Shown here: piece by piece, positions 415 to 32,202 of the stretch
How the letters are laid out: the number at the start of each line of letters is the position of its first letter
Numbering within the stretch: the stretch's first letter is position 1
Assembly: GCA_964561875.1 (NCBI GenBank)
Contig: CAZLQL010000002.1
Span: forward strand, 23,613-87,612
Length of the DNA stretch: 64,000 nucleotides
DNA from: an uncultured Candidatus Saccharibacteria bacterium
GTDB lineage: Bacteria; Patescibacteriota; Minisyncoccia; Phycocordibacterales; PALSA-1337
Direction of reading: 5' to 3'
Notes under the pieces: generated by a model
Databases searched by the model: none
What the model was told of the DNA's origin: nothing
The model's input: only the letters and a program-made list of their open reading frames with translations
Translations under genes and position numbers: made by a program

Positions 415-713
415 TAGTAAGGAAAAACAAGGAGGGTGGTTTTCTGAGAATTTTCATCTCAGCTTCATGAAGCCATTTCAAGCTTCCGGCCCGGGCACGG
501 GGCATACTAGAGAATCCATCATCCTCTAGCTGCTATTTTAGAGAATGATACCTGGGCTTCCGAAGAAGTGTTAGGTATCCTTCTCAAATCTTTAGTTCTG
601 TCGAGGAACTGACAATAACTTACATTAAATATATAATCTTGTCAAATTATCTTTGCATTTTACTAAGATTTAAGGTAATCTAACTGTTACTTCTTAATAA
701 TTAATTTTAATTT

Positions 714-2858: not shown

Positions 2859-3093
2859 AATATAGTTAAAATAAATAGCAGTTGTGGATAACTACGATTG
2901 CAAAGAAAAATATAAGTAGTATTCTTATCACTAAGAGACACTACTCGAAAATCGGGCACAGGAAACTGGCTCGAATTTTTCTTTTTATAAACTGCTTGGA
3001 TATATAAAATATCTATATCTTATCGATAATTTATATAGTATTTAAAGGCAGATGTATTGATCAGTGTAAATTATAAGTTATTAAAAAATAAAA

Positions 3094-4509: not shown

Positions 4510-4576
4510 TTGTTAACACAATATAATTGTCTTATTGTGTTAAAATAGTTGGGTAATATTATTTATAATTATTTAT

Positions 4577-5773
4577 ATGAAAATTAAAAATAGATTTTTT
4601 GTGGTAATGCTTGCATTTTTGATAGTAGGTATTCCACTTGTTTCTTTTGGACAAAATCAAACTATTACTTGTCCTCAAAATTTAATATGTACACCTATAC
4701 CTCCACAACCCGCTGGTTGTCCTGTAGGTTTTACTTGTAAGTTAAATATAGTCGGTACAGATCCTAATGTGGCTGTTCTAATTACTAATACAAGTACATA
4801 TTCACCGGTTGCTAAGTCTGTTTTACCTGATAGTAATGTCTTACTAGGTGTATTTGAAATAACAGATATGAATAAGACATCTACCTTAAAGTCTATATCT
4901 TTTAATATACCAGTTTCAGGGAGATTACCTGCGGATATATTTAATAATCTATACATAAAATCTGGAGACAAAATTGTACCCGCTGATTCTATAAGTTCAA
5001 ATCCTAAATTCTCAAATATCGATAAAATTTTAAGTAGAGATACTACATATACTTTAGCTGTATATGGAGATGTTAAGTCAAACACACCAGATAATACAAA
5101 AGTGTATGTTAGATTGAATGCTGCCAACTCAACAATATATGCCGTTGACTCTGATGGTGTAGCAGCAAAGGTGACTGAGCAGATATCAACATCTAGCACC
5201 ACGACATTTGTGGGTAAGGTTGCTGTATCTAATGTAAGTGCAAAAGCAGAATCAATAGATAATGGAACTTCTCGTCCTAATTTAGCTTCTATCAATATTG
5301 AATTTAATGTAGATAATCTATCTAATAAAGATGTGTTTATAAGTAAGAATCCAAATATAGCACTATCAACATCTTCAACACCAATTAATTCAATTGTGGG
5401 ATTAAAATTCGCTACACCTAATCCTCAAATTTTATCTGGTGACACAGCTGAATCTTATGTGATACCAGCAAATTCTTCAAGAAAATTCTCTTATCTTGGA
5501 GTTATGCTTAGACCAGTAAATGGTGGAGCTGTTTCATTTAAGATATCTCGTCTAAAGTATGGATTTAATTCAAAAAATGGTTTACCAGAACCAGTATTAG
5601 CTACACCAAATACAAATACTGAAAGTAATACTACTTATGATTTTAGAAATATTGGTATTACATATACCCTGGCAACAAGTGACGATGATAATAATATTCT
5701 AGCAACTAGAAATCTTCGCGATAGTTTAGTTGCTTCTGTGTTCGGTTTTGCTAAATTGATATTAGGTTTCTAG
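4577..5773 (+). CDS. secreted hypothetical protein (Cys-rich N-terminal motif)
   Basis: Signal peptide MKIKNRFFVVMLAFLIVGIPLVSFG. CP..C motifs similar to those in the preceding ORF. Low GC, so it is native-looking. Confidence 0.5.
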   Translation: MKIKNRFFVVMLAFLIVGIPLVSFGQNQTITCPQNLICTPIPPQPAGCPVGFTCKLNIVGTDPNVAVLITNTSTYSPVAKSVLPDSNVLLGVFEITDMNKTSTLKSISFNIPVSGRLPADIFNNLYIKSGDKIVPADSISSNPKFSNIDKILSRDTTYTLAVYGDVKSNTPDNTKVYVRLNAANSTIYAVDSDGVAAKVTEQISTSSTTTFVGKVAVSNVSAKAESIDNGTSRPNLASINIEFNVDNLSNKDVFISKNPNIALSTSSTPINSIVGLKFATPNPQILSGDTAESYVIPANSSRKFSYLGVMLRPVNGGAVSFKISRLKYGFNSKNGLPEPVLATPNTNTESNTTYDFRNIGITYTLATSDDDNNILATRNLRDSLVASVFGFAKLILGF

Positions 5774-5932
5774 TACTAACATATATATTTGACTTTAAAA
5801 TGTGTACTGTGCTACTATAGCCAGTACGCATTTTTCTTTGCGTTCATTACTTATTAATTAACAATTTATCTTTAGTCTTGCTTCAACTGGCATTCACGCC
5901 CGATTGAAAAAGGACTAAAGCACTAAAATCAT

Positions 5933-7117
5933 ATGGCAGAATTCAATCGTACAAAGCTTCATGTAAACGTTGGTACAATCGGTCACGTTGACCATGGTAA
6001 GACTACTCTTACTACATCAATTTTGGCTGTTCAAGCTAAGGATGGTCTTGCTCAAAACAAGGCTTATGCTGATATTGCAAAGGGAGGTACAGTAAGAGAT
6101 GCTTCAAAGATCGTTACTATTTCTCTAGCTCACGTAGAATATGAGTCAGCAGCTCGTCACTATGCTCACATAGATGCACCAGGACACGCAGACTACATAA
6201 AGAACATGATTACAGGTGCCGCTCAGATGGACGGTGCTATTCTAGTAGTTTCAGCACAAGATGGAGTTATGCCACAAACAAGAGAGCATATCCTTCTAGC
6301 AAAGCAGGTTGGTGTTCCAAGAGTTGTAGTTTTCCTAAACAAGTGTGATATGGTTCCAGAAAAGGACCTTATAGACCTAGTTGATGAAGAAGTGCGTGAA
6401 CTTCTTACAAAGAACGGTTTTGATGGAAAAAATGCTCCAGTTATACGTGGTTCAGCCCTAAAGGCTCTTGAAGGTGATCCAGAGTGGGTAGCAAAGATCA
6501 AGGAACTTATGAACGCTCTTGATACATATATACCAAACCCAGTTCGTGAAGTTGATAAGCCATTCCTAATGCCTATAGAAGACATCTTCTCAATAGAAGG
6601 TCGTGGAACTGTAGTAACAGGACGTATTGAAAGAGGTGTGATAAAAGTTGGAGAAGAAGTTGAAGTTATAGGTTTCAGAGATACTTCAAAGACAACTATC
6701 ACAGGTATAGAAATGTTCAATAAGTCTCTAAAAGAAGGTATTGCCGGAGACAATGCTGGACTTCTACTAAGAGGTACATCAAAGGATGATGTTACTCGTG
6801 GTATGGTTCTTGCAAAGACAGGATCAGTTAAGCCTCATACAGAATTCGAATCAGAAGTATACATCCTAAAGAAAGAGGAAGGAGGAAGACATACACCATT
6901 CTTCACAGGATATAAGCCTCAGTTCTATATCAGAACAACAGACGTAACAGGAGAAGTAACACTAGCTACTGGAGTAGAAATGGTTATGCCAGGAGATACA
7001 GTTACATTTAAGGTTAAGCTTGTTTCACCAGTTGCCCTAGAAGATAAGCAAAGATTTGCTATTCGTGAAGGAGGTAAGACAGTAGGTGCTGGAGTTATAA
7101 CAAAGATAGTTGCATAA
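5933..7117 (+). CDS. tuf: translation elongation factor Tu
   Basis: [15 protein letters not shown] and NKCD motifs; 394 aa. Confidence 0.95.
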
Positions 7118-7126
7118 TACAATCTC

Positions 7127-7507
7127 ATGACTACTGCTACAAAAGAAGTAAAAAAGAAAGTAACACGAGCAAAAGCTATAAAGGCACCAGTAGAAGGTGA
7201 TGGAGCAAGACTACGCATACGTGTACGTGCTTATGAGCACAAGATTCTTGATGCTTCTTTGAAGCAGATTATGGATACTGCTATCAGATATGATATGAAG
7301 TTCTATGGTCCTATACCACTCCCAACAGAAATAAAGAAATATACAGTAAACAGAGCTGCATTCGTATACAAAAATACTCGTGAACAGTTCGAAATGAGAG
7401 TACACAAGAGACTTATAGACATAATAAATCCAAATCAGAAGATCATCGAAGCACTTACAAACCTTAGTCTACCTGGGGGTGTAAACATAGATGTAAAAAT
7501 GATGTAA
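7127..7507 (+). CDS. rpsJ: 30S ribosomal protein S10
   Basis: [13 protein letters not shown]...[10 protein letters not shown] is S10-like; first gene of the S10 operon order. Confidence 0.9.
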
Positions 7508-7530
7508 TCATTATATTAATTAATACTGCA

Positions 7531-8136
7531 ATGAAATTTATTCTTGGACGAAAGCTAAATATGACTCAGATATTCGACAAAGATGGTGTTGTTCAACCAA
7601 CAACTCTAGTTGAAGCTAGTCCTATAGTTGTAACACAAGTTAAGACAAACGAGTCTGATGGTTACAATGCTGTACAAGTTGCAAGTGGAGCAAAAAAGGT
7701 AGAAAGACTAAATAAGGCTCTTAAGGGACATATGAAAGATCTAGGTGCTTTTGCTTCTCTTAGAGAATTTAGAGTTAATGAAGTAAATCATAAGGTTGGA
7801 GATAAGATAGACTTAGCACAATTCAAAGAGGGTGATTCTATAGAAGTTAGTGCAATTTCAAAGGGAAAAGGCTTCCAAGGAGTAGTTAAGAGACATGGTT
7901 TCGGTGGAGGTCCTCGTACACACGGTCAGAAGCACTCAGAGAGAGAGCCAGGATCTATCGGAGGAGGTCTTAGAAATAAGGTTCCAAAGAAAATGAGAAT
8001 GGCAGGAAGAATGGGTAGTGATAGAGTTACAATAAAGAATTTGAAAGTATTACACGTAGATCAAAATACAAATATTCTTTATATCTCTGGTGCAATTCCT
8101 GGTAAAAGAGGAACACTGGTTGAAATAATCGGATAA
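7531..8136 (+). CDS. rplC: 50S ribosomal protein L3
   Basis: GRKLNMTQIFDKDG...KGKGFQGVVKRHGF is L3-like. Confidence 0.9.
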   Translation: MKFILGRKLNMTQIFDKDGVVQPTTLVEASPIVVTQVKTNESDGYNAVQVASGAKKVERLNKALKGHMKDLGAFASLREFRVNEVNHKVGDKIDLAQFKEGDSIEVSAISKGKGFQGVVKRHGFGGGPRTHGQKHSEREPGSIGGGLRNKVPKKMRMAGRMGSDRVTIKNLKVLHVDQNTNILYISGAIPGKRGTLVEIIG

Positions 8137-8157
8137 AAATGATAGAAAGACAAAACA

Positions 8158-8823
8158 ATGGAAACAAAAATGGAAACAAAAATACATAATCAAAGAGGAG
8201 AAGAAGTTGGAAAGATAAGTCTACCAACAGAAGTATTTGGTCTACCATGGAACTCAAACCTAGTTCATGGAGTGGTTGTTTCTATGATGTCATCTAGTCG
8301 TGATCCTATTGCTCATACAAAGACTCGTGGTGAGGTAAGTGGAGGAGGTAAGAAGCCATGGCAACAGAAAGGTACTGGTCGTGCTCGTCACGGATCTACA
8401 AGATCTCCTATATGGGTAGGTGGAGGTATCGCTCATGGTCCAAGAAATGATAAGAATTATGATAGAAAGATAAATAAGAAGACTAAAGCAAAGGCTTTGT
8501 ACACTATTCTCTCAAAGAAATTTAAAGACGGTGAATTGCTATTTATAGATTCAATATCTTTTGAAAAGCCAAAAACAAAAGACGCAAAGGTTACTGTTGA
8601 GTCATTTGGAAAAATAAAAGGTTTTGAAAAGTTTACAACTAAACCAAAAAATGTAGCCATAATAGCTATGGATAAAAAATCAGATAATGTTTCAAAGAGT
8701 TTTGGTAACTTCGGAAATATTTCTATAGAAGAATTTAGAAATATAAATCCAGTTTCTATCCTTAACCACAAGTATCTGGTTATTGTTAATCCAAAGGATA
8801 GTCTAAAAACTTTTAATAAATAA
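8158..8823 (+). CDS. rplD: 50S ribosomal protein L4
   Basis: KKPWQQKGTGRARHGS is L4-like. The start is duplicated (METKMETK), so the true start may be the second ATG at 8170. Confidence 0.9.
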   Translation: METKMETKIHNQRGEEVGKISLPTEVFGLPWNSNLVHGVVVSMMSSSRDPIAHTKTRGEVSGGGKKPWQQKGTGRARHGSTRSPIWVGGGIAHGPRNDKNYDRKINKKTKAKALYTILSKKFKDGELLFIDSISFEKPKTKDAKVTVESFGKIKGFEKFTTKPKNVAIIAMDKKSDNVSKSFGNFGNISIEEFRNINPVSILNHKYLVIVNPKDSLKTFNK

Positions 8824-8828
8824 AATAT

Positions 8829-9245
8829 ATGGCTTTATTCGGAATAAAAAAGAATACTGAAAGTAAGGTTGAGACAAAAAAGCCTGCTTCAAAAATAGCA
8901 AAGGTTACAAAGACTACAAAAAAGCCAGTTGTTAAGGCTGTAGCAGAAAGAGTAAATAAAGGAACAACAATTCAAAGTGATGTAATCATAAGACCTAGAA
9001 TAACTGAGAAATCAGGTTTAGCAATAGAATCAAGCAATATTTACACTTTCGAAGTAAAGAAAGATGCTACAAAGGAATCTATTTCTAAGGCAATAAAGAA
9101 TATGTATAAAGTTACACCTATAAAGGTTAGAACTATTCATCTTCCAGCCAAGGCAGTTTTTGTTAGAGGAAAACATGGTGTTCAATCATCTATAAAGAAA
9201 GCTCTAGTCTATTTAAAGAAGGGAGATAAGATAGAAATTGCATAA
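8829..9245 (+). CDS. rplW: 50S ribosomal protein L23 (Lys-rich N-terminal extension)
   Basis: IIRPRITEKS...VRGKHG core; operon position. Confidence 0.85.
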   Translation: MALFGIKKNTESKVETKKPASKIAKVTKTTKKPVVKAVAERVNKGTTIQSDVIIRPRITEKSGLAIESSNIYTFEVKKDATKESISKAIKNMYKVTPIKVRTIHLPAKAVFVRGKHGVQSSIKKALVYLKKGDKIEIA

Positions 9246-9264
9246 ATAAATTTATAATAAATAT

Positions 9265-10122
9265 ATGAAACACTATCACCCAACAACACCATCAAGACGT
9301 CACATGACAACACTTCCTTTCAAGAAGTATTTGACTACATCTGAACCTTATAAACCTCTTACAAAAGGTATGAAGAGAGACGTTGGAAGAAATAGCCAAG
9401 GTCGTATCACAGTAAGACACCAAGGAGGTGGACATAAGAAACTATATAGAGAAATAGACTTCTTCTACAATAAGAAGGATATGAAAGCTACTATAAAGAC
9501 TATTGAGTATGATCCATTTAGAACAGGCTATATTGCTCTAGTTCAATACGCTGACGGAGAAAGAAGATACATACTTGTACCAAAGACAATGAAGGTCGGT
9601 AATACATTCATGGTATCTGAGAATGCTCTAGTAGAAACAGGAAATAGATTACCTCTAAAGAAGATTCCAGTTGGAACATTTGTTTACAATATAGAAGTTA
9701 AGCCAAATGGAGGTTCAAAATTGGTAAGATCAGCTGGAACATTTGCTCAGGTTATTGCAAACGATGCTGGATATACACATATCAAACTTCCTTCAACAGA
9801 AGTTAGAAAAGTTCATGAAACTGCTTGGGCAAGTGTTGGTACTGTATCAAATGAAGAATCTCGTCTAGTTAATATAGGAAAAGCTGGACGTTCACGCTGG
9901 TTGGGTATACGTCCAACAGTTAGAGGATCTGCTCAGAACCCTGTGGATCACCCATACGGAGGAGGAGAACAGAGAACAGGTCGAGGTCTACGTAGACTAA
10001 AAACTCGTTGGGGTAAACCAGCAGGAAAGGGTCAGAAGACAAGAACACCAAAGAAATATTCAAATGTGTTCATTGTTTCAAGAAGAAAGGTTGGAAAAAA
10101 GTCAGCAAATGATCAGATATAA
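9265..10122 (+). CDS. rplB: 50S ribosomal protein L2
   Basis: GGGHKKLYREIDF, HPYGGGEQRT. Confidence 0.95.
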   Translation: MKHYHPTTPSRRHMTTLPFKKYLTTSEPYKPLTKGMKRDVGRNSQGRITVRHQGGGHKKLYREIDFFYNKKDMKATIKTIEYDPFRTGYIALVQYADGERRYILVPKTMKVGNTFMVSENALVETGNRLPLKKIPVGTFVYNIEVKPNGGSKLVRSAGTFAQVIANDAGYTHIKLPSTEVRKVHETAWASVGTVSNEESRLVNIGKAGRSRWLGIRPTVRGSAQNPVDHPYGGGEQRTGRGLRRLKTRWGKPAGKGQKTRTPKKYSNVFIVSRRKVGKKSANDQI

Positions 10123-10198
10123 TATCAAAAAAAGCTTATATTTCTTGACTTTAATCAATGATTTGCTAGTATTTGAAGACTTCAAACAAAAATAAAAC

Positions 10199-10546
10199 AT
10201 GTCACGATCACTAAAAAAAGGACCATATATCGAAGAAAGACTGCTAAAGAAAATAGCAGGTAAAAAGCCAATAGAGACTGGGGTTATTAAGACATGGTAT
10301 AGAAGAAGCCAGATTGCTCCTGAAATGGTCGGTTTTATTTTTGGTGTATACAATGGAAAGCAACATATAGAAGTTCTAGTCACCGAGGAAATGGTAGGAC
10401 ACCGCCTTGGTGAATTTTCTCCTACAAAGAAATTTATAAGACACGGAGGAAAGATGCAGAAGGAACTTGAAATGAAAGCTAAGGAAGCTGAGGTTAATGC
10501 TGCAAAAGCTGCTAAGGAAGCTGTTGCTTCACCAGCAAAAAAATAA
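10199..10546 (+). CDS. rpsS: 30S ribosomal protein S19 (C-terminal Lys/Ala-rich extension)
   Basis: [10 protein letters not shown]...[10 protein letters not shown]. Confidence 0.9.
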
Positions 10547-10560
10547 TTTAAATAAAAGCC

Positions 10561-10968
10561 ATGATCAACGCTTCACTAAAAAACTACAGACAATCACCAC
10601 GTAAAATGAGAGGCGTGGCAAATCTAATAAAGGGTAAACCAGTTACTATTGCTTTAGATACATTGGCACATATAAATAAGAAGGCAGGAGATCCACTATA
10701 TGCTCTACTTGCTTCTGCAGTTTCAAATGCAAAAAATAATTTTAATATGGATAAAGAAGGTTTGATAGTAAAGGATATAAGAATAGACTCAGGTTTTATA
10801 TTGAAAAGAAATATGCCAAGAGCTCGTGGTATGGCATATAGAATAAATAAGAGAACAAGCCATGTAAATATAACATTGGCTCCTAAGCCAGAAAAAGCAC
10901 CTAAAGTAAAAGTTGCTTCAAAGGTAGAAGATAAAAAAGAAGTAAAGGTTAAAAAAGAACAAAAATAA
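10561..10968 (+). CDS. rplV: 50S ribosomal protein L22
   Basis: YRQSPRKMRGVANLIKG; operon position. Confidence 0.9.
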   Translation: MINASLKNYRQSPRKMRGVANLIKGKPVTIALDTLAHINKKAGDPLYALLASAVSNAKNNFNMDKEGLIVKDIRIDSGFILKRNMPRARGMAYRINKRTSHVNITLAPKPEKAPKVKVASKVEDKKEVKVKKEQK

Positions 10969-10969
10969 C

Positions 10970-11674
10970 ATGTCAAAATCAGTCCACCCATATTCACATA
11001 GACTAGGAGTAATACGCGATTGGAAAAGTCGTTGGTTTAGACAGAACAAAGACTATAGAGATTCACTAAAAGCAGATTTACTTATAAGACAGTTTCTTAC
11101 AAAAGAGCTTAGAACATTTTATCTATCAGATGTTCAAATAGAAAGAAATCAAAAATCACTTAAGGTTATAATCAGAACTTCACGTCCTGGAATGATAATA
11201 GGAAGAAGTGGTGATGGTGTTGTAAAACTTAGAGAAAAAATACTTTCAATACTAAAAAAGAATAAGGTAGATCTACAAGGACAAGAATTGAAGCTTGATA
11301 TAGAAGAAGTTAGAAATCCAGAAGCAAATGCAGCTATAGTTGCTATGATGGTTGCTGAAGGACTAGAGAAGAGACTTCCTTTCAGAAGAGTGTTGAAGCA
11401 AACTATCGAAAAGGTAATGGCAAATAGAGAAGTTCAAGGAGTAAAGATAAAACTAGGTGGTCGTCTTGGTGGAGCAGATATGGCTCGTACAGAAGACTTG
11501 AAGAGAGGACGTATTCCACTTCAGACTTTGAGAGCAGATATTGACTTTGCTCGTGAAAAAGCAAATATGACATATGGTGGAATAGGTATAAAGGTTTGGA
11601 TATATAAAGGTCAGATATTCGAAAGAGATCTAAAGACAGCACGTGAGAGAGAGGCTGTTAATAACAGATCATAA
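10970..11674 (+). CDS. rpsC: 30S ribosomal protein S3
   Basis: HPYSHRLGVIRDWKSRWF and a KH domain. Confidence 0.95.
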   Translation: MSKSVHPYSHRLGVIRDWKSRWFRQNKDYRDSLKADLLIRQFLTKELRTFYLSDVQIERNQKSLKVIIRTSRPGMIIGRSGDGVVKLREKILSILKKNKVDLQGQELKLDIEEVRNPEANAAIVAMMVAEGLEKRLPFRRVLKQTIEKVMANREVQGVKIKLGGRLGGADMARTEDLKRGRIPLQTLRADIDFAREKANMTYGGIGIKVWIYKGQIFERDLKTAREREAVNNRS

Positions 11675-11688
11675 TTTATTTAAATATC

Positions 11689-12120
11689 ATGTTTTTTCCT
11701 AAAAAAGTAAAATTCAGAAAGTGGCATACAGGACGCAAGAATGCAAAAAAGCTTGCAGTTGCTGTTGAGACACGTGGTACAAAACTAGCATTCGGATCTT
11801 TTGGTTTGAAAGCACTTGAATTTGGAAGATTGACTTCAAATGAAATTGAAGCAGCAAGAAAAGTTATGGCACGTTATGCTACAAAGTCTGGAAAGGTTTG
11901 GGTTAGAATTTTCCCAGATAGACCATACACACAGAAGCCACCTGAAGTAAAACTAGGAAAAGGAAAGGGTGATCCAGTAGGATTTGTTGCGGAAGTTAGA
12001 GCTGGAAGAATACTTTTTGAAGTAGATGGAGTTACAGATGTAGTTGCGGCAGAAGCATTGAGAAAGGCTGGTACAAAGATCTCTGTAAAGACAAAAGTTG
12101 TAAATCGTAACTTAATATAG
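11689..12120 (+). CDS. rplP: 50S ribosomal protein L16
   Basis: PKKVKFRKWHTGR. Confidence 0.95.
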   Translation: MFFPKKVKFRKWHTGRKNAKKLAVAVETRGTKLAFGSFGLKALEFGRLTSNEIEAARKVMARYATKSGKVWVRIFPDRPYTQKPPEVKLGKGKGDPVGFVAEVRAGRILFEVDGVTDVVAAEALRKAGTKISVKTKVVNRNLI

Positions 12121-12129
12121 TATAAACAT

Positions 12130-12327
12130 ATGAAAGAGTATAAGAATAAAACAATAGAAGATCTAAACAAGCTAATCAATGAAAAGAGAGCTTCAATACG
12201 TGATTTCCGCTTCGGTTCTACAGGAAGCAAGACAAAGAACGTAAAGTTGTCAGCTACTCTTAGAAAAGATATAGCTAGAATAATGACTGAACTTACCCTA
12301 AGAAGGAAAGCAGAGTCAAAGAAATAA
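12130..12327 (+). CDS. rpmC: 50S ribosomal protein L29
   Basis: 65 aa; ELRELS-like N-terminal helix; operon position. Confidence 0.85.
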   Translation: MKEYKNKTIEDLNKLINEKRASIRDFRFGSTGSKTKNVKLSATLRKDIARIMTELTLRRKAESKK

Positions 12328-12342
12328 AGGATTATAAACAAA

Positions 12343-12606
12343 ATGGAAACAAAAACAACACAAAACAATATATCAGCACCAAAGAGACAGAAACTTTCTG
12401 GGGTTGTTGTATCTGATAAAATGAAAGATACAGTTGTTGTACTAGTAGAAAGATTTGTTAAAGATCCTAAATACCAAAAGTATATGAAGCTTAGAAAGAG
12501 ATATAAGGTTCATGATGCTGGTAATACAAAGAAGATAGGTGATAAGGTTGTTATAGAGTCATGCAGACCTATATCAAGACATAAGTCTTTCAAAATTTCA
12601 GCATAA
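12343..12606 (+). CDS. rpsQ: 30S ribosomal protein S17
   Basis: GVVVSDKMKDTVVVLVER...HD..N. Confidence 0.9.
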   Translation: METKTTQNNISAPKRQKLSGVVVSDKMKDTVVVLVERFVKDPKYQKYMKLRKRYKVHDAGNTKKIGDKVVIESCRPISRHKSFKISA

Positions 12607-12624
12607 TAATTTAAATAAACTTCC

Positions 12625-12996
12625 ATGATACAGCCACGTTCAATAGTAAGAATAACAGACAATTGCGGAGCAAAAATAGGCCGTATATTCAAGGTGCTAG
12701 GAAGCTCAAAGAAGAGATATGCAACAATAGGCGATCTAGTTGTACTTTCTGTACAAAAAGCAGAACCTAGAAAAACAATAAAGAAGAAGGATGTTCTACA
12801 AGCAGTTGTTGTAAGACAAGTTCAACCATTTAGAAGAAAGGATGGTTCATACATAAAGTTTGATGAAAATGCAGTTGTTATAGTTGAAAAGGGTAAGAAG
12901 GAACCTGTTGCAGGACGTATATTCGGTCCTATACCACGCGAAATAGCCGAACAAGGTTTCCAAACTATTGCTTCACGTGCACCAGAAATAGTATAA
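12625..12996 (+). CDS. rplN: 50S ribosomal protein L14
   Basis: MIQPRSIVRITDNCGAK. Confidence 0.95.
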   Translation: MIQPRSIVRITDNCGAKIGRIFKVLGSSKKRYATIGDLVVLSVQKAEPRKTIKKKDVLQAVVVRQVQPFRRKDGSYIKFDENAVVIVEKGKKEPVAGRIFGPIPREIAEQGFQTIASRAPEIV

Positions 12997-13003
12997 AAAT
13001 TAT

Positions 13004-13246
13004 ATGAATATCAAGAAAGACAACAATGTAATAGTGCTTGTAGGAAAAGATAAGGGTAAAACTGGAAAAGTTTTGAAAATGCTTCCTAAAGAAAATAAAC
13101 TTATAGTATCTGGTTTAAACATGGTCAAAAAGCACCAGAAGCCAAGACAGAAAGGACAGAAGGGTCAAACAGTAGAAGTTTCAATGCCAATTCACATTTC
13201 AAATGTTGCACTAGAGTCAGAATATAAGAAAGGAAAGAAGAAATAA
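13004..13246 (+). CDS. rplX: 50S ribosomal protein L24
   Basis: KOW-like VIVLVGKDKGKTGKVL. Confidence 0.85.
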   Translation: MNIKKDNNVIVLVGKDKGKTGKVLKMLPKENKLIVSGLNMVKKHQKPRQKGQKGQTVEVSMPIHISNVALESEYKKGKKK

Positions 13247-13271
13247 GATATTGTAAGGTAGAAATAAAAAC

Positions 13272-13832
13272 ATGAAAAAAGAAACAGTAAAAAATACATA
13301 CGAATTAAACAAAAACTCTTTTGAAAATCTAAAGGGTAAGCTTGAATTTAAAAATAAGATGCAAGCACCAAGACTAGTAAAAGTTGTAATATCTTCAGGT
13401 ATAGGTTCACTTAAGGATAAAAAGAAGATGGAACTTATTGCAGACCGTCTTGCAAAGATAACTGGACAAAAGCCAGCTCTAAGAGGTGCAAAGAAATCTA
13501 TTGCAACATTTAAAGTTAGACAAGGAGATCCTGTTGGATATCAAATAACCCTAAGAGGAAAGAGAATGTGTGATTTTGTAGATCGTCTTATAAATATCGC
13601 CCTTCCTCGTACAAAGGACTTCCGTGGTATATCTAGAACAGCAGTAGATGAAATGGGAAACTACAATCTAGGAATAAAGGAACATACAATATTTGCTGAA
13701 ACTTCAGACGAAGATTTGAAAGATGTATTCGGAATGGGAATAAGCTTTGTTGTTTCTTCTAAGAAAGAAGAAGACACAATAGCTTTTCTAGAATACCTAG
13801 GTTTTCCATTTAAGAAGGTTGGGGTTAAATAA
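13272..13832 (+). CDS. rplE: 50S ribosomal protein L5
   Basis: NKMQAPRLVKVVISSGIG...GMGISF. Confidence 0.95.
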   Translation: MKKETVKNTYELNKNSFENLKGKLEFKNKMQAPRLVKVVISSGIGSLKDKKKMELIADRLAKITGQKPALRGAKKSIATFKVRQGDPVGYQITLRGKRMCDFVDRLINIALPRTKDFRGISRTAVDEMGNYNLGIKEHTIFAETSDEDLKDVFGMGISFVVSSKKEEDTIAFLEYLGFPFKKVGVK

Positions 13833-13861
13833 ATCTATTTAATAAAAATTATTTTAATAAA

Positions 13862-13898
13862 AAAACAACCGCTGGACGAACCATGCGGTGTTTTGTTA
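13862..13898. terminator. hairpin plus T/A tracts between rplE and the antisense lipoprotein gene (bidirectional terminator); member of a two-copy hairpin family
   Basis: aaaaacaaccgctggacgaaccatgcggtgttttgtt. The reverse complement (aacaccgcatggttcgtccagcggttg) matches 32461-32490 at 24 of 27 positions. Confidence 0.5.
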
Positions 13899-13916
13899 AA
13901 TTTCTTCCTTAACCTC

Positions 13917-14282
13917 TCACTTTTCCTTGATAAAGTAGGTGTAGGTGGAGATACCGAATGGATTGCTTTTCAATCCAATCTGCTCCGCCTCGATTTCTGA
14001 TCCGATTACCTGTGGTTTTGCACTTAGTGCTGACCACAGACTTTCGCGGGAATGGTTATTTAGGTCCTTGAAAACCACATTGTATAGCCCGCTCCTCACT
14101 TGGACGTTGGTAATAACCACTCCAGTAACAGTAATTGGTACGATATTTACCTTCGAACTATCAATTCCTCCACTGCTGATGAAATCAGTTTGGATCTTTT
14201 CATGCTCGGACCAGTCGCGCTTGCAACCAGTAGAGAAGAAAAGTGTTCCGACAAATACAGACAACAAGAAGAACATTTTCAT
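13917..14282 (-). CDS. lipoprotein (hypothetical), inserted antisense within the spc ribosomal operon
   Basis: Signal peptide with lipobox MKMFFLLSVFVGTLFFSTGC. GC content visibly above the flanking r-protein genes. It sits in a 640-bp gap between rplE and rpsN on the opposite strand. Confidence 0.55.
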   Translation of the reverse strand: MKMFFLLSVFVGTLFFSTGCKRDWSEHEKIQTDFISSGGIDSSKVNIVPITVTGVVITNVQVRSGLYNVVFKDLNNHSRESLWSALSAKPQVIGSEIEAEQIGLKSNPFGISTYTYFIKEK

Positions 14283-14475
14283 ACGCCCATAAGATATCAT
14301 GCATATATTAACAAGTCAATAGATATTAACTTGCCTTATTTGAGCCACTCTGCTAGTATATTGAGACGTTCGAAATAAGTATACAGGCCCTAAAAAGCAT
14401 AGTGATTGGAAGCCCATACCGCAAGGTCAAGCTAACCAATCCTCGTTTGTTTATAAAATTGTTTATAAAATAAAA

Positions 14476-14661
14476 ATGGCAAAGACATCAGTAAAAGCAA
14501 GAGCAAAGAAAGCCCCAAAGTTCAAATCAAGGGTTGTTCGTCGTTGCTTCAGATGTGGCAGAAAAAATGGATATATGAGAGATTTCGATCTTTGCCGTAT
14601 TTGTTTCAGAGAGTTCGCAAATGAAGGTGTTATTCCAGGAATAAAGAAATCATCATGGTAA
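14476..14661 (+). CDS. rpsN: 30S ribosomal protein S14, type Z (zinc-binding)
   Basis: 61 aa with a CxxC...CxxC motif (RCFRCGR...CRIC). Confidence 0.9.
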   Translation: MAKTSVKARAKKAPKFKSRVVRRCFRCGRKNGYMRDFDLCRICFREFANEGVIPGIKKSSW

Positions 14662-15047
14662 CAGACCCAATCGCAAATTTAATAATTTCAATAAAGAATG
14701 CCAATAAAGCAGGTAAGGCAAGTATTTCAATACCTTATTCTGCTCTAAAGGAATCAATAGCTCATGTCTTACTAAAGGCAGGATATGTTTCAAGTGTTGA
14801 AGCTAAAGGAAAGAAGATCGATAAGACACTTGAGATAGGACTTTCATACATAGGTGATATGCCTCGTGTAAGTGATGTTTCTCGTATATCAAAACCATCA
14901 AGAAGAATATACCAAAAGGCAAAAGATATAAGAATATTTAAGAGTGGTTACGGAAACACTGTCTTTTCTACACCAGAAGGAATACTTATAGATATCGATG
15001 CAAAGACAAGAAAGGTCGGAGGGGAAGCATTATTTAAGATCTGGTAA
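14655..15047 (+). CDS. rpsH: 30S ribosomal protein S8
   Basis: DPIANLIISIKNA; operon position. Confidence 0.95.
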   Translation: MVTDPIANLIISIKNANKAGKASISIPYSALKESIAHVLLKAGYVSSVEAKGKKIDKTLEIGLSYIGDMPRVSDVSRISKPSRRIYQKAKDIRIFKSGYGNTVFSTPEGILIDIDAKTRKVGGEALFKIW

Positions 15048-15057
15048 TATAAAAAAC

Positions 15058-15591
15058 ATGTCACGTCTAGCAAAAAAACCTATAGCAATTCCTGAAAAGA
15101 TACAAGTTACATATACTGGTGGTGTGTTTACAGCAAAAGGACCACTTGGAGAAATAAAGAAAGATCTACGTCCTGATGTAAATATCAAGATTGAGAATAA
15201 TGAAATACTTCTTACTCCAGCAAATAACTCTATACAAACAAAAGCCTTACTTGGTACTTATGCTTCTCATATAAAGAATATGATGTCAGGTGTAAATAAA
15301 GCATATGAAAAGAAACTTATAATAGAAGGAATTGGTTTCAAATCTGAAGTTAAAGGAAAAGAATTGCACCTAGCACTAGGTTTTTCACACCCAATAAAGG
15401 TTACTATACCTGATGGTCTAAAGGTTACAGCAGAAAAAAACATCGTTACAACATCAGGAATAGATTGTGAAATGGTGGGTCAGTTTGCTGCAAAGATAAG
15501 AGCAATGAAGAAACCTGAACCATATAAGGGTAAGGGTATAAGATATGAGAAGGAAGTTATAAGACGTAAGCAAGGTAAGAAAGCTGCATAG
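15058..15591 (+). CDS. rplF: 50S ribosomal protein L6
   Basis: MSRLAKKPIAIPEKIQV... The ORF track extends upstream into rpsH; the start at 15058 removes the overlap. Confidence 0.9.
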   Translation: MSRLAKKPIAIPEKIQVTYTGGVFTAKGPLGEIKKDLRPDVNIKIENNEILLTPANNSIQTKALLGTYASHIKNMMSGVNKAYEKKLIIEGIGFKSEVKGKELHLALGFSHPIKVTIPDGLKVTAEKNIVTTSGIDCEMVGQFAAKIRAMKKPEPYKGKGIRYEKEVIRRKQGKKAA

Positions 15592-15604
15592 TATTTGAAA
15601 ATAT

Positions 15605-15955
15605 ATGAATACAAGTAAACAAAAACAATTAAAGATAGCTAGAAGACACAAGAGAATTCGTGCAATACTTTCTGGTACAACAGAACGTCCACGTCTATCT
15701 GTATTCAAGTCTCATAAATACATATCTGCACAAATAATAGATGATACAAAAGGACATACACTAGTTTCATTCTCATCAAAGGATGCAAAATCAAAGACAC
15801 CCGCAGAAAAAGCCTTTGAAGTGGGTACAGAGATTGCAAAAAAAGCAAAAGCAAATAAAATTACAAAAGTAGTTTTTGATCGTGGTGGATATCTGTATAC
15901 TGGAAAGATAAAATCTGTAGCAGATGGAGCTAGAGAAGGTGGTCTAATATTTTAA
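15605..15955 (+). CDS. rplR: 50S ribosomal protein L18
   Basis: RPRLSVFKSHKYISAQIIDD. Confidence 0.9.
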   Translation: MNTSKQKQLKIARRHKRIRAILSGTTERPRLSVFKSHKYISAQIIDDTKGHTLVSFSSKDAKSKTPAEKAFEVGTEIAKKAKANKITKVVFDRGGYLYTGKIKSVADGAREGGLIF

Positions 15956-15961
15956 ATAAAA

Positions 15962-16594
15962 ATGGAACAAGAAATAAAACAACCAAATACAGAAATAAAA
16001 GTAGTAGGAAATGCTCCAGTTGCTCCTTCTGCTAATCCAACTGATGCAAGATCATTTGATAGAAGATCTCGTGGCCCAAAGAGAGATGGAAGCAGACCAC
16101 CTCGTGAGCAAAAAGAAAGAATAAAACCAGAATTTGATACAAAGATCATAAACATAAGACGTGTGACTCGTGTTGTTTCTGGAGGAAGAAGATTTACATT
16201 TTCAGTAGCAGTAGTTTCTGGAGATAGAAAGGGTAGAGTTGGTGTTGGTCTAGGTAAATCAGGAGATACTTCAATGGCTATAGACAAAGCTACTCGTGAT
16301 GCAAAGAAAAATATGATAAGGATTCCACTTTCTTCAAACATGACTATTCCTCATGCTATACAAGCAAAATACTCAAGTGCAGTTGTTATGATGATGCCCG
16401 CAAAAGGAAGAGGAGTTGTAGCAGGAAGCTCAGCTAGAAATGTTGTTGAGCTAGGAGGTGTTAAGGATATTTGTGTGAAGCTTTTGTCAGGTAGTAAAAA
16501 TAAACTAAACATTGCAAAAGCTACAATAAAAGCCCTATCACTTCTTTCAAAGAACTCTGTTACAAAAATGACAAAGTCACCTGAAAAGAAATAA
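15962..16594 (+). CDS. rpsE: 30S ribosomal protein S5 (N-terminal extension)
   Basis: INIRRVTRVVSGGRRFTFSVAVVSGD. Confidence 0.9.
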   Translation: MEQEIKQPNTEIKVVGNAPVAPSANPTDARSFDRRSRGPKRDGSRPPREQKERIKPEFDTKIINIRRVTRVVSGGRRFTFSVAVVSGDRKGRVGVGLGKSGDTSMAIDKATRDAKKNMIRIPLSSNMTIPHAIQAKYSSAVVMMMPAKGRGVVAGSSARNVVELGGVKDICVKLLSGSKNKLNIAKATIKALSLLSKNSVTKMTKSPEKK

Positions 16595-16612
16595 AAATTT
16601 AATTAAAATACC

Positions 16613-17056
16613 ATGCAGATACATACACTTATACCAAAAGATAAAAACAAGAAGACCATGATAGTTGGTCGTGGTGGAAAACGTGGAAAGACATCTGGTC
16701 GTGGTGGAAAAGGTCAGACAGCAAGAGCAGGTAACAAGCGTCGTCCAGAACTAAGAGATTTTATAAAGAGAATTCCAAAGCTTCGTGGTCGTGGTGTTAA
16801 CTCAAATAAATCTATAGAAAAAGATGTAGTTCCAGTAAATCTATCTATTATAGATTCAAAGTTTAAGGCTTCAGATATAGTATCTCCAAAGACTATGGTT
16901 GAAGCAGGTGTAATTTCTACATTTAATGGTAAAATTCCTAGTGTAAAGATTTTAGCAACAGGTGAAATAACAAAGAAACTTACATTCACTGACTGTATAA
17001 TTTCAGAGAGTGCAAAAGCAAAAATAGAGAAAGCGGGTGGAAGTTTCGGTAAATAA
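16613..17056 (+). CDS. rplO: 50S ribosomal protein L15
   Basis: GRGGKRGKTSGRGGKGQ. No rpmD (L30) lies between rpsE and this gene. Confidence 0.9.
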   Translation: MQIHTLIPKDKNKKTMIVGRGGKRGKTSGRGGKGQTARAGNKRRPELRDFIKRIPKLRGRGVNSNKSIEKDVVPVNLSIIDSKFKASDIVSPKTMVEAGVISTFNGKIPSVKILATGEITKKLTFTDCIISESAKAKIEKAGGSFGK

Positions 17057-17059
17057 AAC

Positions 17060-18334
17060 ATGAATTCATTCATACAAAAGATTTCTACAGTTCTCAAAGA
17101 TCCAATGATGAGAAAGCGTATAGCTTTTACTTTAGGAGCATTGGTAGTATTTAGATTGATATCAACAATTCCTATACCTGGAATAGATGTCGCAAATCTA
17201 GAAAGATTATTGGCTGGGAATCAATTTTTCGGTCTATTAGACATATTTTCTGGTGGAGGTATATCTAGACTTTCTATAGTTATGCTTGGAGTAGGACCAT
17301 ACATTACAGGTTCTATTATTATCCAGCTGTTTACAATGATGTTCCCAAGAATGAAAGCTATGATGCAAGAGGAAGGGGATGCTGGTAGACAGAAACTTTC
17401 AAATTACTCAAGATTACTTGCAGTACCATTGGCTGCACTTCAAGGTTTTGCTTTTCTTTCATTACTTAAAACTCAGGGAGTAGTTTCAGCATCTATAACT
17501 CCTATGGAAATGATTGTAAACGTATTTGTTATAACTGCAGGATCACTATTTCTAATGTGGTTGGGTGAATTGGTATCAGAATTCGGTATAGGAAACGGAG
17601 TTTCACTTATAATATTTGCAGGTATTATTGCAGTTCTACCAACACAGATAATGCAATTCTTTGCAGGATTTGATTCTACACAAATACCACTTTATCTAGT
17701 ATTTGCTGTTATATCTATTCTAGTTATATTGGCAGTTGTTGTTGTTACAGAAGCAGAAAGACCTGTTTCAGTTACTTATGCAAAGCAAGTTAGAGGAAAT
17801 AAAGTGTATGGTGGAGTTTCAACATATCTTCCACTAAGATTAAATCAAGCAGGAGTTATTCCTATAATATTTGCTCTATCAATACTTCTATTCCCACAAA
17901 TAATCTCTAACTTCCTATCAAAAGTATCAAATACTCAGATAGCTGAAATTGCTACAAAAGTTTCAGTTTTCCTAAACGATGCTTGGGTCCATGGAATACT
18001 TTATTTCCTATTAGTGTTTGTATTTACCTACTTCTATACTGCAGTGACATTTGATCCAAAGATGATATCAGAAAATCTACAGAAGGGTGGGGCCTTTATT
18101 CCAGGAGTACGTCCAGGAGAATCTACACAGATATATCTAGGAAAGATAGTAACTCGTATAACTCTAGTCGGCGCTGTATTTCTAGGTTTTGTAGCTGTAT
18201 TACCAGTTATAATGCAAGGATTTAGTGGTAATCAATCTCTAGCTATTGGGGGTACAGCATTACTTATCGTTGTTTCTGTAGTTCTAGATCTATTGAAGAA
18301 AATCGACGCTCAAGCAAGCATGAGACAGTACTAA
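17060..18334 (+). CDS. secY: preprotein translocase subunit SecY
   Basis: 424 aa, 10-TM profile, operon position. Confidence 0.95.
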   Translation: MNSFIQKISTVLKDPMMRKRIAFTLGALVVFRLISTIPIPGIDVANLERLLAGNQFFGLLDIFSGGGISRLSIVMLGVGPYITGSIIIQLFTMMFPRMKAMMQEEGDAGRQKLSNYSRLLAVPLAALQGFAFLSLLKTQGVVSASITPMEMIVNVFVITAGSLFLMWLGELVSEFGIGNGVSLIIFAGIIAVLPTQIMQFFAGFDSTQIPLYLVFAVISILVILAVVVVTEAERPVSVTYAKQVRGNKVYGGVSTYLPLRLNQAGVIPIIFALSILLFPQIISNFLSKVSNTQIAEIATKVSVFLNDAWVHGILYFLLVFVFTYFYTAVTFDPKMISENLQKGGAFIPGVRPGESTQIYLGKIVTRITLVGAVFLGFVAVLPVIMQGFSGNQSLAIGGTALLIVVSVVLDLLKKIDAQASMRQY

Positions 18335-18381
18335 AATATCATAACTAGGTTTTTATCTAATTATGGATATAATATAGGCAT

Positions 18382-18978
18382 ATGAAAATGCCACAGAAAT
18401 CATTTATATTTACAGGAATATCTGGTTGCGGAAAAGGTACTCAGATAAATAATTTATTAAAATATTTTGAAGGTAAGGGTGAAAGTGTCCTAAATATTGA
18501 AACAGGTCATGAATTTAGGGAATTTATAAACGGTAATAGTCAAACTCAAATACTTTCAAAAAATATTTATGATAAAGGAGGTATACAACCTGCATTTCTA
18601 GCTTGTCATATTTGGTCACACACACTTATAAAAAAGTTTGATGATAAATCACATCTTATAATAGACGGTGCACCTAGAACTTATCCAGAAGCTTTAGTGA
18701 TGGATTCGGTATTTAAATTTTATTCTATTGAAAAGCCCAATGTTATTCATATTGATATAGATAGGGAACAAGCAACAAAAAGGCTTTTATCAAGAAAAAG
18801 AATTGATGACAATATAGATGATATAAATGCTAGATTAGATTTTTATTACAAAGATGTTGTTCCAGCTCTCGAGTATTATAAAAATGATAGTTTCTATAAC
18901 TATGTTCATATAAATGGTAATAAATCTATAGAGGATATATTTGAGGAAATAAAATCAAAAACAGGTTTAGATAAATAA
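18382..18978 (+). CDS. adk: adenylate kinase-like nucleoside monophosphate kinase (divergent, short LID)
   Basis: P-loop GISGCGKGTQ and IIDGAPRTYPEA resemble the Adk NMP-binding motif; position after secY. Confidence 0.7.
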   Translation: MKMPQKSFIFTGISGCGKGTQINNLLKYFEGKGESVLNIETGHEFREFINGNSQTQILSKNIYDKGGIQPAFLACHIWSHTLIKKFDDKSHLIIDGAPRTYPEALVMDSVFKFYSIEKPNVIHIDIDREQATKRLLSRKRIDDNIDDINARLDFYYKDVVPALEYYKNDSFYNYVHINGNKSIEDIFEEIKSKTGLDK

Positions 18979-18983
18979 AAATA

Positions 18984-19751
18984 ATGATTAAGATAAAGAC
19001 AAAAGAGGAAATAGCCATATTGAGAGAAGGAGGAAAGAGACATGCTGAAATAATGAGAAATATAGTAAAGTTAGTTATTCCAGGTGTTTCAACTTCCTTT
19101 TTAAATGATGAAACAACCAGAATGATAATCGAGGGTGGAGATATTCCTTCACTATTAAATTTTAGACCAAGTGGTTCAAAGAGACCTTATCCAGCTTCGA
19201 TATGTATATCGGTAAATGATGAAATAGTGCATGGTATACCAAATGAAAACCCAAGAATATTGAAGGAAGGTGATATTGTGAGTTTAGACTTTGCCATGAC
19301 TCATAAAGGAATGGTTACAGATATGGCTGTAACCGTACCTGTAGGTAATGTAAGTGAAGAGTGTATGGAATTGATGGAGATAACAAAAAAGGCTCTTATG
19401 GCAGGTATAAAGGCCGGAAAGGGTGGTAAAAAGGTTGGCGATATAAGTTCTGCTATAGAGAAAATCGGTATTATGGGTGGTTATGGGATAGTGGAAGAAC
19501 TATGTGGACACGGTGTAGGTTATGGAGTGCATGAAGAACCCATGGTTCCAAACTACGGTGAACCAAATACAGGTGACAAGCTCGTACCTGGAATGGTTTT
19601 GGCTATAGAGCCGATGTTCAATCTTGGTGATAGAAATTTAACTTTAGATGATGATGGTTATACATATAGAACACAAGATGGAAAAGTCAGTGCGCATTTT
19701 GAGCATACGGTAGTAATAACAAAGAGTGAACCAGAAATATTAACATTATAA
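18984..19751 (+). CDS. map: type I methionine aminopeptidase
   Basis: HGIP...D...CGHGVG...EHT metal-ligand pattern. Confidence 0.95.
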   Translation: MIKIKTKEEIAILREGGKRHAEIMRNIVKLVIPGVSTSFLNDETTRMIIEGGDIPSLLNFRPSGSKRPYPASICISVNDEIVHGIPNENPRILKEGDIVSLDFAMTHKGMVTDMAVTVPVGNVSEECMELMEITKKALMAGIKAGKGGKKVGDISSAIEKIGIMGGYGIVEELCGHGVGYGVHEEPMVPNYGEPNTGDKLVPGMVLAIEPMFNLGDRNLTLDDDGYTYRTQDGKVSAHFEHTVVITKSEPEILTL

Positions 19752-19753
19752 AA

Positions 19754-20350
19754 ATGAAAGAAAGAACACTTGTAATCATAAAACCAGATGGAATACAGAG
19801 ATCGCTAGTGGGTGAGGTTGTAGGTCGCTTTGAAAAAGTGGGATTAAAGATAGTTGCAATGAAAATGATGGTTGCAAACGATAGTTTGATAGAACAGCAT
19901 TATACTCTAGATCCAGAATGGAGAAGAATAACTGGTGAGAAAAATATAAAAGCTTATGAGGATAAGGGTTTAGTTCATCCATTAAAAAATGATCCATTAA
20001 AAGTTACAGAAATTATTCTTTCTAAATTAAAAAAGTATTTAACAAGTGGACCTATAATAGCAATTGTTTTAGAAGGTGCACATTCTGTTTCTATAGTGAG
20101 AAAATTGGTTGGAAGTACTGAGCCTTTGATGTCAGATGTTGGAACTATAAGAGGCGATTTTGTTCTTGATTCATATAAACTTGCAGATGATGGAGAGAGG
20201 GCTGTAAGAAACATCGTACACGCTTCAAGTTCTGTAAAAGAAGCTCAAAATGAGATAAAACATTGGTTTAATGAAAAGGAAATAATAGATTATAGACATG
20301 TAAGTGAGAGGATATTATATGATGTAGATATGGACGGTAAAAAAGAATAA
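19754..20350 (+). CDS. ndk: nucleoside diphosphate kinase (with insertions)
   Basis: ERTLVIIKPDG...N..H.S.S active-site region. Confidence 0.85.
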   Translation: MKERTLVIIKPDGIQRSLVGEVVGRFEKVGLKIVAMKMMVANDSLIEQHYTLDPEWRRITGEKNIKAYEDKGLVHPLKNDPLKVTEIILSKLKKYLTSGPIIAIVLEGAHSVSIVRKLVGSTEPLMSDVGTIRGDFVLDSYKLADDGERAVRNIVHASSSVKEAQNEIKHWFNEKEIIDYRHVSERILYDVDMDGKKE

Positions 20351-32019: not shown

Positions 32020-32202
32020 ATTAATAGCTTCCGGTACAGTAGCTATTGACATATAGATTTTACTATGATATATCCATAAAGTAAGGTAAGTTCTTTGAAA
32101 GGTGTGTAGTTGAGTACGGAATAAGGGAAATAATTGACTTGCTGGCAATCGCTATGCGGATTAAATTCCTTTACTGTACTCAATACAAGAGAGAAACACA
32201 TC

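Follow-up and report, generated by a model that had tools for sequence, protein, structure and literature searches.

A predicted lipoprotein gene is one of several exchangeable cargoes between rplE and rpsN in the spc operon of a patescibacterium

Results

An antisense gene of foreign composition in the rplE–rpsN gap

We analysed a 64-kb stretch of low-GC DNA (34% G + C; hereafter called the window) from contig CAZLQL010000002.1 of an uncultured patescibacterium, the closest public genomes of which are labelled Candidatus Paceibacteria or Paceibacterota. A str-S10-spc-alpha ribosomal cluster of the usual make-up lies on the plus strand at window positions 700–20000. The region studied was this cluster and, within its spc operon, the gap between rplE and rpsN; rpsN is followed by rpsH, rplF, rplR, rpsE, rplO and secY. 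Relatives were numbered L001 onwards, and the coordinates of the features are collected in Table 1. An initial annotation, made from the letters of the sequence, had described a gap of about 640 bp at this place, occupied by a minus-strand lipoprotein gene. Open reading frame (ORF) and Pfam calls found the gene where it had been described, and the gap measured 643 bp.

The minus-strand frame is open from 13917 to 14300. Comparison with relatives set the start at 14282 (MKMFFLL...). An ATG at 14300 was considered as the start and rejected; it is missing in L002, shows no conservation and falls within the promoter of the gene, in the interval between the -10 and -35 boxes. The predicted signal peptide corresponds to codons 1–19 (14282–14226), the codon for Cys20 lies at 14225–14223 and the mature protein would have a length of 102 amino acids. 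The N-terminal sequence, MKMFFLLSVFVGTLFFSTG followed by C, has a Lys at position 2, an uncharged hydrophobic stretch, a lipobox and Cys20, and the mature part contains no other Cys. The lipobox, given earlier as FSTGC, was recovered as FSTG directly before Cys20. We took the rule for lipoprotein precursors (of the PROSITE PS51257 type) to be a positively charged N-terminus, a hydrophobic stretch, the pattern [LIVMFWSTAG]2-[LIVMFYSTAGCQ]-[AGS]-C and a Cys within the first 40 residues, and all three alleles of the gene agree with it. The product is predicted to be a lipoprotein precursor of the signal peptidase II type, and to be lipidated.

The G + C content of the lipoprotein gene was 0.427, against a mean of 0.347 (standard deviation (sd) 0.038) for 70 large ORFs of the window. 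At third codon positions (GC3) it was 0.492, against a mean of 0.235 (sd 0.078), an excess of about 3.3 sd and the top value among the 70 ORFs. The excess sits in the third codon positions and not in the amino-acid composition. The gene is compositionally foreign; the initial annotation had described it as richer in G + C than the r-protein genes around it.

A search of 5.8 billion proteins returned only two clusters of homologues, with 93% and 68% identity, and an exhaustive HMMER search, run with a profile on 1.84 billion representatives, returned the representative of the gene's own family alone. Both homologues are located between rplE and rpsN in the same antisense orientation, in independent assemblies, and a further copy is present in L164. 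The protein had no match in Pfam, NCBIfam, PHROGs or PADLOC, and word-indexed and profile searches found nothing past the three alleles.

Between diverged alleles, with a synonymous divergence (dS) of about 0.5, the ratio of nonsynonymous to synonymous divergence (dN/dS) was 0.31–0.35 (Fisher p 1e-4 and 2e-5), and the sole length difference among the alleles is one codon, in frame. The gene thus encodes a protein under purifying selection; this selection, the in-frame indel and the kept lipobox together argue for a real protein-coding gene. One could suppose instead that the frame is open by chance in a non-coding spacer and that the gap is a long regulatory region, since the protein has neither a family nor a confident fold and the opposite strand has an ORF of 115 amino acids in the window. 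However, that ORF is broken in L002, whereas the signal peptide and lipobox are kept in all three alleles, and a chance frame would not account for the low dN/dS at this divergence (p ≤ 1e-4). The G + C enrichment falls at third codon positions, as in coding sequence, and the gene has a conserved promoter and terminator of its own. We regard a chance frame as extremely improbable.

A hypervariable site in the ribosomal cluster

The rplE–rpsN gap was measured in 36 species-level relatives, which were retrieved via the L5 gene, and ranged from 51 to 3610 bp. When the 12 junctions between the L16 and SecY genes were compared in about 30 relatives, the L5–S14 junction had a minimum of 81, a median of 261 and a maximum of 3604 bp, and exceeded 300 bp in 13 of 30. 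At the other 11 junctions no distance was above 243 bp, and the medians were at most 29 bp. The initial annotation had called an insertion at this position unusual; among the 12 junctions it is the only one at which more than 243 bp was ever found.

The long gaps held a variety of unrelated genes, namely those for a PBECR1 nuclease-domain protein, a secreted protein of 302 amino acids, EamA-like membrane proteins, a LuxR/GerE regulator, an ORF6N protein, an IS3-type transposase with a methyltransferase (IS3 in L019), and a shikimate kinase with a threonine synthase. Pfam matches among them were to PBECR1, EamA-like, GerE and ORF6N. Most of this cargo is antisense, and it is always found between the rplE stop and the rpsN promoter.

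The variation is also visible behind one and the same S14 protein. The S14 protein of the window recurs unchanged in 63 blocks of the public collection, and the gap upstream of it takes five states: empty (161–192 bp), ORF6N alone (once frameshifted), ORF6N with the lipoprotein gene, ORF6N with a gene here called X, and the lipoprotein gene alone. Gene X is an unrelated, GC-rich gene of 120–122 codons that occupies the same slot as the lipoprotein gene and has the -35 box and the terminator hairpin in common with it. The whole length of the ORF6N protein is covered by its match to the PADLOC defence candidate PDC-S05 (E 2e-58), and there are matches to phage anti-repressor PHROGs as well. In relatives without the lipoprotein ORF the whole cassette is absent, and no relative was found that has an identical intergenic sequence without the ORF. 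The site is hypervariable, and the lipoprotein gene is one among several cargoes that can take each other's place there.

In distant Paceibacteria (L171–L200) the gene within 700 nt 5' of rpsN is not rplE. The neighbours of rpsN in these lineages encode an MFS transporter, a Mur-ligase family protein, an IS200 (Y1_Tnp) or rve transposase, or a giant Peptidase_S74 protein.

Expression signals in the gap

A predicted terminator, the hairpin that the initial annotation had placed at the flank of the gene, folds on both strands. Its stem is formed by 13868–13875 and 13881–13889, is G + C-rich and contains 8 bp and one bulge, and its loop is ACGAA. An A-run lies upstream of the stem and TTTTGTT downstream of it; transcripts would carry UUUUGUU on the plus strand and UUUUUUU on the minus strand. 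The folding energy was -15.2 kcal/mol on the plus strand (z -3.35, with none of 200 shuffles as good) and -16.5 kcal/mol on the minus strand (z -2.6). The hairpin has the properties of an intrinsic terminator, and a simple scan had missed it owing to the bulge. L164, L160 and L168 have retained this hairpin, 3' of either the lipoprotein gene or the unrelated gene X.

The predicted promoter of the lipoprotein gene was identified by a promoter scan. Its -35 box with surroundings (cTATTGACTT) is conserved in the window and in L001, L002, L164, L160 and L169, before three different cargo genes. The ATG of the lipoprotein gene follows 8 nt past the -10 box, so the mRNA would be leaderless or nearly so.

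Back-to-back with this promoter, with 11 bp between the two -35 boxes, lies the predicted promoter of rpsN. It is the restart promoter TTGCCT-N17-TAGTAT that had been proposed from the sequence of the window, and the TGC preceding its -10 box (TAGTAT, 14354–14359) makes this an extended -10. A generic promoter scan did not list it. The pattern TTGnnn-N17-TGnTAnnnT was present in 33 of 36 related gaps, empty gaps included, against 8.2 expected from shuffles. In most of the 36 gaps the -10 box ends about 80–130 nt before the rpsN ATG, and in several empty gaps the -35 box starts 0–11 nt after the rplE stop. By its TTGnnn box, 17-nt spacer, TGnTAnnnT box and conserved position it classifies as a sigma-70-type extended -10 promoter.

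Conservation is also seen in the 15–20 nt with which the predicted rpsN transcript begins (ACGUUCGAAAUAAG; 14366–14385 in the window, and the equivalent positions in relatives). In distant relatives a short hairpin of other sequence is found there instead, and this element may stabilise the 5' end.

Since the promoter, and in many relatives also a leader, is present even in empty gaps (81–200 bp), the split of the operon would be ancestral and older than the insertion. Judged from these signals, the spc operon appears to consist of two units in a large branch of the Paceibacteria, and the seam between the units appears to be an exchanged islet with resident expression signals. The ancestral seam is probably the reason why insertions are tolerated.

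The initial annotation had left a choice between transcriptional interference and a split of the operon, of which only the split was retained. Interference with the ribosomal genes finds no support in the sequence, because the predicted terminator would stop both convergent transcripts ahead of any coding overlap and the two promoters diverge. A stronger version would have the antisense gene exist mainly to regulate the ribosomal genes, by interference or as an antisense RNA, and not for its protein. Its convergence with rplE would fit, as would the distance of 11 bp between its promoter and the -35 box of rpsN, at which competition or supercoiling coupling is possible. Such a role is at odds with the selection on the protein, with the ending of both transcripts before they reach opposing coding sequence, and with the close relatives that lack the cassette or have unrelated genes in the slot. 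We consider it very unlikely.

Origin of the cassette

Between the window and L001, dS was 0.92 for rplE and 0.04 for the lipoprotein gene. In bins of 100 nt, identity was 0.83–0.91 through the ribosomal genes and 0.94–0.99 from 13848 on, just past the rplE stop. The flanks of the window are 91–99% identical to those of the L161/L163/L167 lineage, which has an empty gap of 192 bp and another leader hairpin; the nucleotide identity of rplE is 88–95% to the L161 lineage and 80–87% to the L164 lineage. The cassette is 96–97% identical to that of L164 and L001, or 90–97% when promoters and leader are counted in, and the flanks of L164 and L001 are only 77–90% identical to the window. L002 and L003 have a second allele, which is about 80% identical, on a window-like backbone. 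This mismatch in identity between flanks and cassette indicates a recent acquisition from another lineage by recombinational transfer. The cassette was most probably brought in by homologous recombination, the crossovers having occurred within the conserved ribosomal genes. Exchange of rpsN by recombination has been documented in streptococci, with breakpoints in the neighbouring conserved genes.

Instead of transfer, the mosaic could reflect an artefact of metagenome assembly, as all comparison sequences are metagenomic contigs and rpsN is 95–100% identical between lineages, which allows strain switching. However, the left breakpoint is located where the lineages are only 80–88% identical. 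The lipoprotein gene was found at the site in at least 4 independent assemblies and on two backbones; independent assemblies have it on an L164-like backbone (L001 and L164), and L002 and L003 have the second allele on a window-like backbone. An artefact therefore seems quite improbable to us.

A repeat search of the cassette yielded no terminal inverted repeats, target duplications or attC-like sites, and no recombinase ORF was found in or beside the gap. The sole repeat pair that brackets the cassette consists of two 15-nt A/T-rich arms that are 80% complementary (I2). A transposable element and an integron cassette were rejected as classifications, there being no flanking repeats of note and no transposase or integrase.

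A self-mobilising element that targets the site, or part of one (an insertion sequence (IS), a miniature inverted-repeat transposable element, an integron cassette or a prophage remnant), was considered in a wider sense too. Relatives offer some grounds for this: the L019 gap contains the IS3-type transposase, Y1_Tnp and rve genes lie beside rpsN in distant lineages, the ORF6N cargo resembles phage anti-repressors, and the cargo is modular with a common -35 box and terminator. Against it stand the missing terminal repeats, target duplications, attC-like sites, transposase and integrase, and the breakpoints, which are at the ends of conserved ribosomal genes as homologous recombination predicts. 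On balance a self-mobilising element is unlikely, and homologous recombination is the route that we prefer.

A structured leader in front of rpsN

The 5' untranslated region (UTR) of rpsN contains a predicted RNA motif with three helices. In P1, 14404–14409 pair with 14436–14441 (GAUUGG/CCAAUC), followed by a bulged A at 14410. In P2, 14411–14413 pair with 14431–14433 (AGC/GCU), with AA at 14434–14435, and an internal loop follows. P3 is formed by 14418–14420 and 14425–14427 and has a GCAA loop. The consensus can be written as 5'-GAUUGG-A-AGC-(3-4 nt)-[hairpin]-(N)AA-GCU-AA-CCAAUC-3'. An extension of P1 by two pairs was dropped, as no standard pair is formed in 12 and 24 of the 32 sequences, respectively.

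We found 32 distinct versions of the motif, one per locus and always 5' of rpsN, at a distance of 9–63 nt from the rpsN ATG; the 64-kb window contains no second copy. All versions fold alike, and UUGG...CCAA of P1 and the first two pairs of P2 (A-U and G-C) are invariant. Compensatory changes were seen in two P1 pairs, and one P2 pair changes from C-G to U-G. P1 and P2 are so uniform that they show little covariation, and the support for the structure comes mainly from P3. This helix forms in every sequence, with 20 different outer helices that are free in length and sequence; the mean z against shuffles was -3.1, and 31 of the 32 sequences were below -1. The motif thus has the character of a conserved structured 5'-UTR RNA, as would be expected of a ribosomal-protein leader.

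The motif is followed at 4 nt by a U-rich tract. In 23 of 23 aligned sequences, 6–8 of the ten bases starting 3 nt past P1 are U, and the motif with its U-tract resembles a weak intrinsic terminator or an attenuator. The window also has a perfect tandem duplication of a 12-mer here, and in close relatives the second TTGTTTATAAAA copy is one base shorter or longer. Some distant lineages have other leaders before rpsN, for example the repeated GAAGCUUC units in L194–L199.

Rfam 15 gave no match at the gathering score in the gap, and at E ≤ 10 over 13800–14520 the one match was to a fragment of RNase P, within the lipoprotein gene and due to chance. A survey of ribosomal leaders from 2020 (PMC7247131) contains no rpsN or Parcubacteria motif. 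A metagenome scan with the pattern TTGGAAGYN{8,38}GCTNACCAA gave at least 120 matches; among the matches listed, one (L121) was located 5' of rpsN and the others were chance. At the level of its class, we see even odds that the leader is an attenuator responsive to a ribosomal protein. S8 is a possible ligand, although we put it forward tentatively. Compared with the rrnB sequence of Escherichia coli, the leader model had no match on the sense strand and only a weak match on the antisense strand, and a divergent copy of the leader, in L030, has U-A in place of G-C.

Coordinates and other features of the window

Table 1. Features of the rplE–rpsN region and of the gap in relatives (window positions unless a relative is named)
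Feature	Position	Strand	Description and basis
rplE (ribosomal protein L5)	13272–13832	+	Last gene of the predicted upstream transcription unit; Pfam Ribosomal_L5 and L5_C, E 1e-17 and 4e-28
Putative two-way intrinsic terminator	13857–13899 (hairpin 13866–13892)	both	Folds on both strands, kept in relatives
Lipoprotein gene (predicted), 121-amino-acid precursor	13917–14282 (stop codon included)	-	ORF, start placed by conservation, lipobox, dN/dS
Predicted promoter of the lipoprotein gene	14319–14291	-	-35 TTGACT (14319–14314), 17-nt spacer ending in TG, -10 TATCTT (14296–14291); promoter scan
Predicted rpsN promoter	14331–14359	+	-35 TTGCCT (14331–14336), N17, extended -10 TGCTAGTAT (14351–14359)
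Predicted leader RNA motif	14404–14441	+	rpsN 5' UTR; 32 versions, helices P1–P3
U-rich tract UUUGUUUA	14446–14453	+	4 nt after P1
Tandem duplication, TTGTTTATAAAA twice (12-mer, perfect)	14447–14470	+	Directly before the rpsN start
rpsN (zinc-type S14, 61 amino acids)	14476–14661	+	First gene of the predicted downstream unit; Pfam Ribosomal_S14
ORF6N gene in the gap	L160 2177–3298; L164 2298–3326; L168 2186–3300; L169 2711–3238; L165 2712–3238 (frameshifted)		PDC-S05 match

Elsewhere in the window, four minus-strand ORFs (28981–30313, 32043–32462, 35872–36336 and 45360–45701) have a GC3 of 0.40–0.49, against the window mean of 0.235, and are probably foreign; one of them belongs to the inositol-monophosphatase family. 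The segment 33087–36787 contains genes for a HATPase_c_3 (GHKL ATPase) protein and a SocA/Panacea antitoxin-like protein and two ORFs without assignment, beside the tmRNA gene (36386–36787). Taken together, these genes resemble a small islet of the defence or toxin-antitoxin kind, located at a classic integration site. The tRNA-Ile at 39295–39370 has the anticodon UAU, which is uncommon in bacteria, and not the usual lysidine-modified CAU.

Discussion

The best overall explanation, to which we assign a probability of roughly 80%, is that the gap holds an accessory lipoprotein cassette that was recently acquired in an ancestral, variable seam of the spc operon. It builds on the reality of the gene and the selection on it, its foreign composition, the variability of the site, the conservation of promoter and leader and the mosaic pattern of identity. 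The interpretation first given to the locus, an antisense, GC-richer, inserted gene with a terminator and a restart promoter, is supported by these results.

According to this explanation, the lipoprotein gene is a genuine accessory gene that would be expressed on its own and whose product would be a small lipoprotein anchored in the membrane. The cassette would be self-contained, with a sigma-70-type promoter of its own, an mRNA that has little or no leader, and a hairpin terminator at which the convergent rplE transcript would end too. The transcription of rpsN and the genes following it would be driven by their own strong extended -10 promoter, after which many lineages have a conserved structured leader. 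Insertion would be tolerated because the downstream ribosomal genes are independent of read-through from rplE. DNA between the rplE stop and the rpsN promoter would then do little harm, and the seam would in this way have become a hotspot with different cargo in different strains. The cassette itself would have been gained recently from another lineage, with the conserved ribosomal genes as homology arms.

Several points weigh against this explanation. The promoters, the terminator, the leaderless start and the transcript ends are predictions from sequence and conservation. Between the two closest alleles dN/dS was 0.83, a value that is little informative with just 12 differences (p 0.73). The lipoprotein is without detectable relatives outside the three alleles. 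The AlphaFold2 models had a pLDDT of 40.5 (with the three-sequence alignment) and 45.2 (mature protein alone), too poor for use. Finally, all compared sequences are metagenome assemblies, and an assembler that switches between strains could create or exaggerate a mosaic in one contig.

As to function, our guess is that the lipoprotein is a strain-variable surface protein in the interaction with a host or phage. A more elaborate scheme is speculative and in our opinion rather doubtful. In it, the seam would be a dedicated docking site, with a resident outward promoter and terminator that would serve any gene placed between them, and with the near-identical ribosomal genes as homology arms by which surface or anti-phage genes would pass between species through transformation; the lipoprotein would block phage adsorption or tune attachment to the host, and the leader would be an attenuator, most likely stabilised by S8, that secures the independence of the downstream genes.

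The S10-spc-alpha cluster is a textbook case of a gene order that is frozen, and it forms the backbone of the marker sets with which bacteria of the candidate phyla radiation are placed in the tree. A hypervariable, horizontally exchanged islet kept in this cluster by a whole class would illustrate how a promoter inside an operon can divide it in two and offer new genes a safe harbour. Breaks or chimeras in contigs and bins may arise at this very marker locus. The site also hints at a reservoir of surface and defence genes that differ between strains, in organisms that live attached to other cells, and the leader 5' of rpsN-rpsH is a candidate for feedback control by ribosomal proteins in a lineage with none known.

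Variable hotspots and defence islets flanked by core genes are found in bacterial pangenomes, with conserved flanks and strain-specific cargo. The site described here is like them in having a defence candidate (ORF6N/PDC-S05), a nuclease domain, IS elements and exchange between lineages. It differs in that it is tiny (0.1–3.6 kb), in that the flanks are essential ribosomal genes and in that resident back-to-back promoters and a terminator appear to be reused by the cargo.

Small lipoproteins of phages and plasmids block receptors or entry (Llp of T5, Cor of phi80 and N15, TraT). The predicted lipoprotein resembles them in its size of about 100 amino acids, its variability between strains, its horizontal movement and its place beside phage- or defence-like cargo in relatives, which is an analogy only, with no sequence or structural similarity shown.

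A published study of insertions in ribosomal clusters likewise described a few accessory genes between transcription units, and single genes exchanged by recombination. That study dealt with Gammaproteobacteria and Bacilli, not with Patescibacteria. Here, in contrast, the site lies inside the canonical spc operon, has a predicted promoter of its own, is hypervariable between close strains and contains mostly antisense cargo.

For the leader, the closest comparison is the regulation of the E. coli spc operon by S8 (Fu et al. 2013, PMC3616713), which has in common with it a structured RNA in the spc transcript near rplE and rpsN, with an invariant core and a variable stem. In the S8 site of E. 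coli the core, an internal loop, is invariant, and the distal stem varies freely (PMC3616713). The leader differs from it in being located in the 5' UTR of rpsN without overlap with the rplE start, and in having an extra AA bulge and an extra C-G pair. The U-tract 3' of the leader suggests attenuation and not translational entrapment. There is also a likeness in outline to helix 21 of 16S rRNA (E. coli sequence), which contains the S8 site: the lower stem is followed by a bulged A, by an A-U and a G-C pair and by an asymmetric loop that contains A. In all, the locus belongs in kind with hotspots between core genes, with insertions at operon junctions and with ribosomal leaders, and its predicted leader RNA is one not described before.

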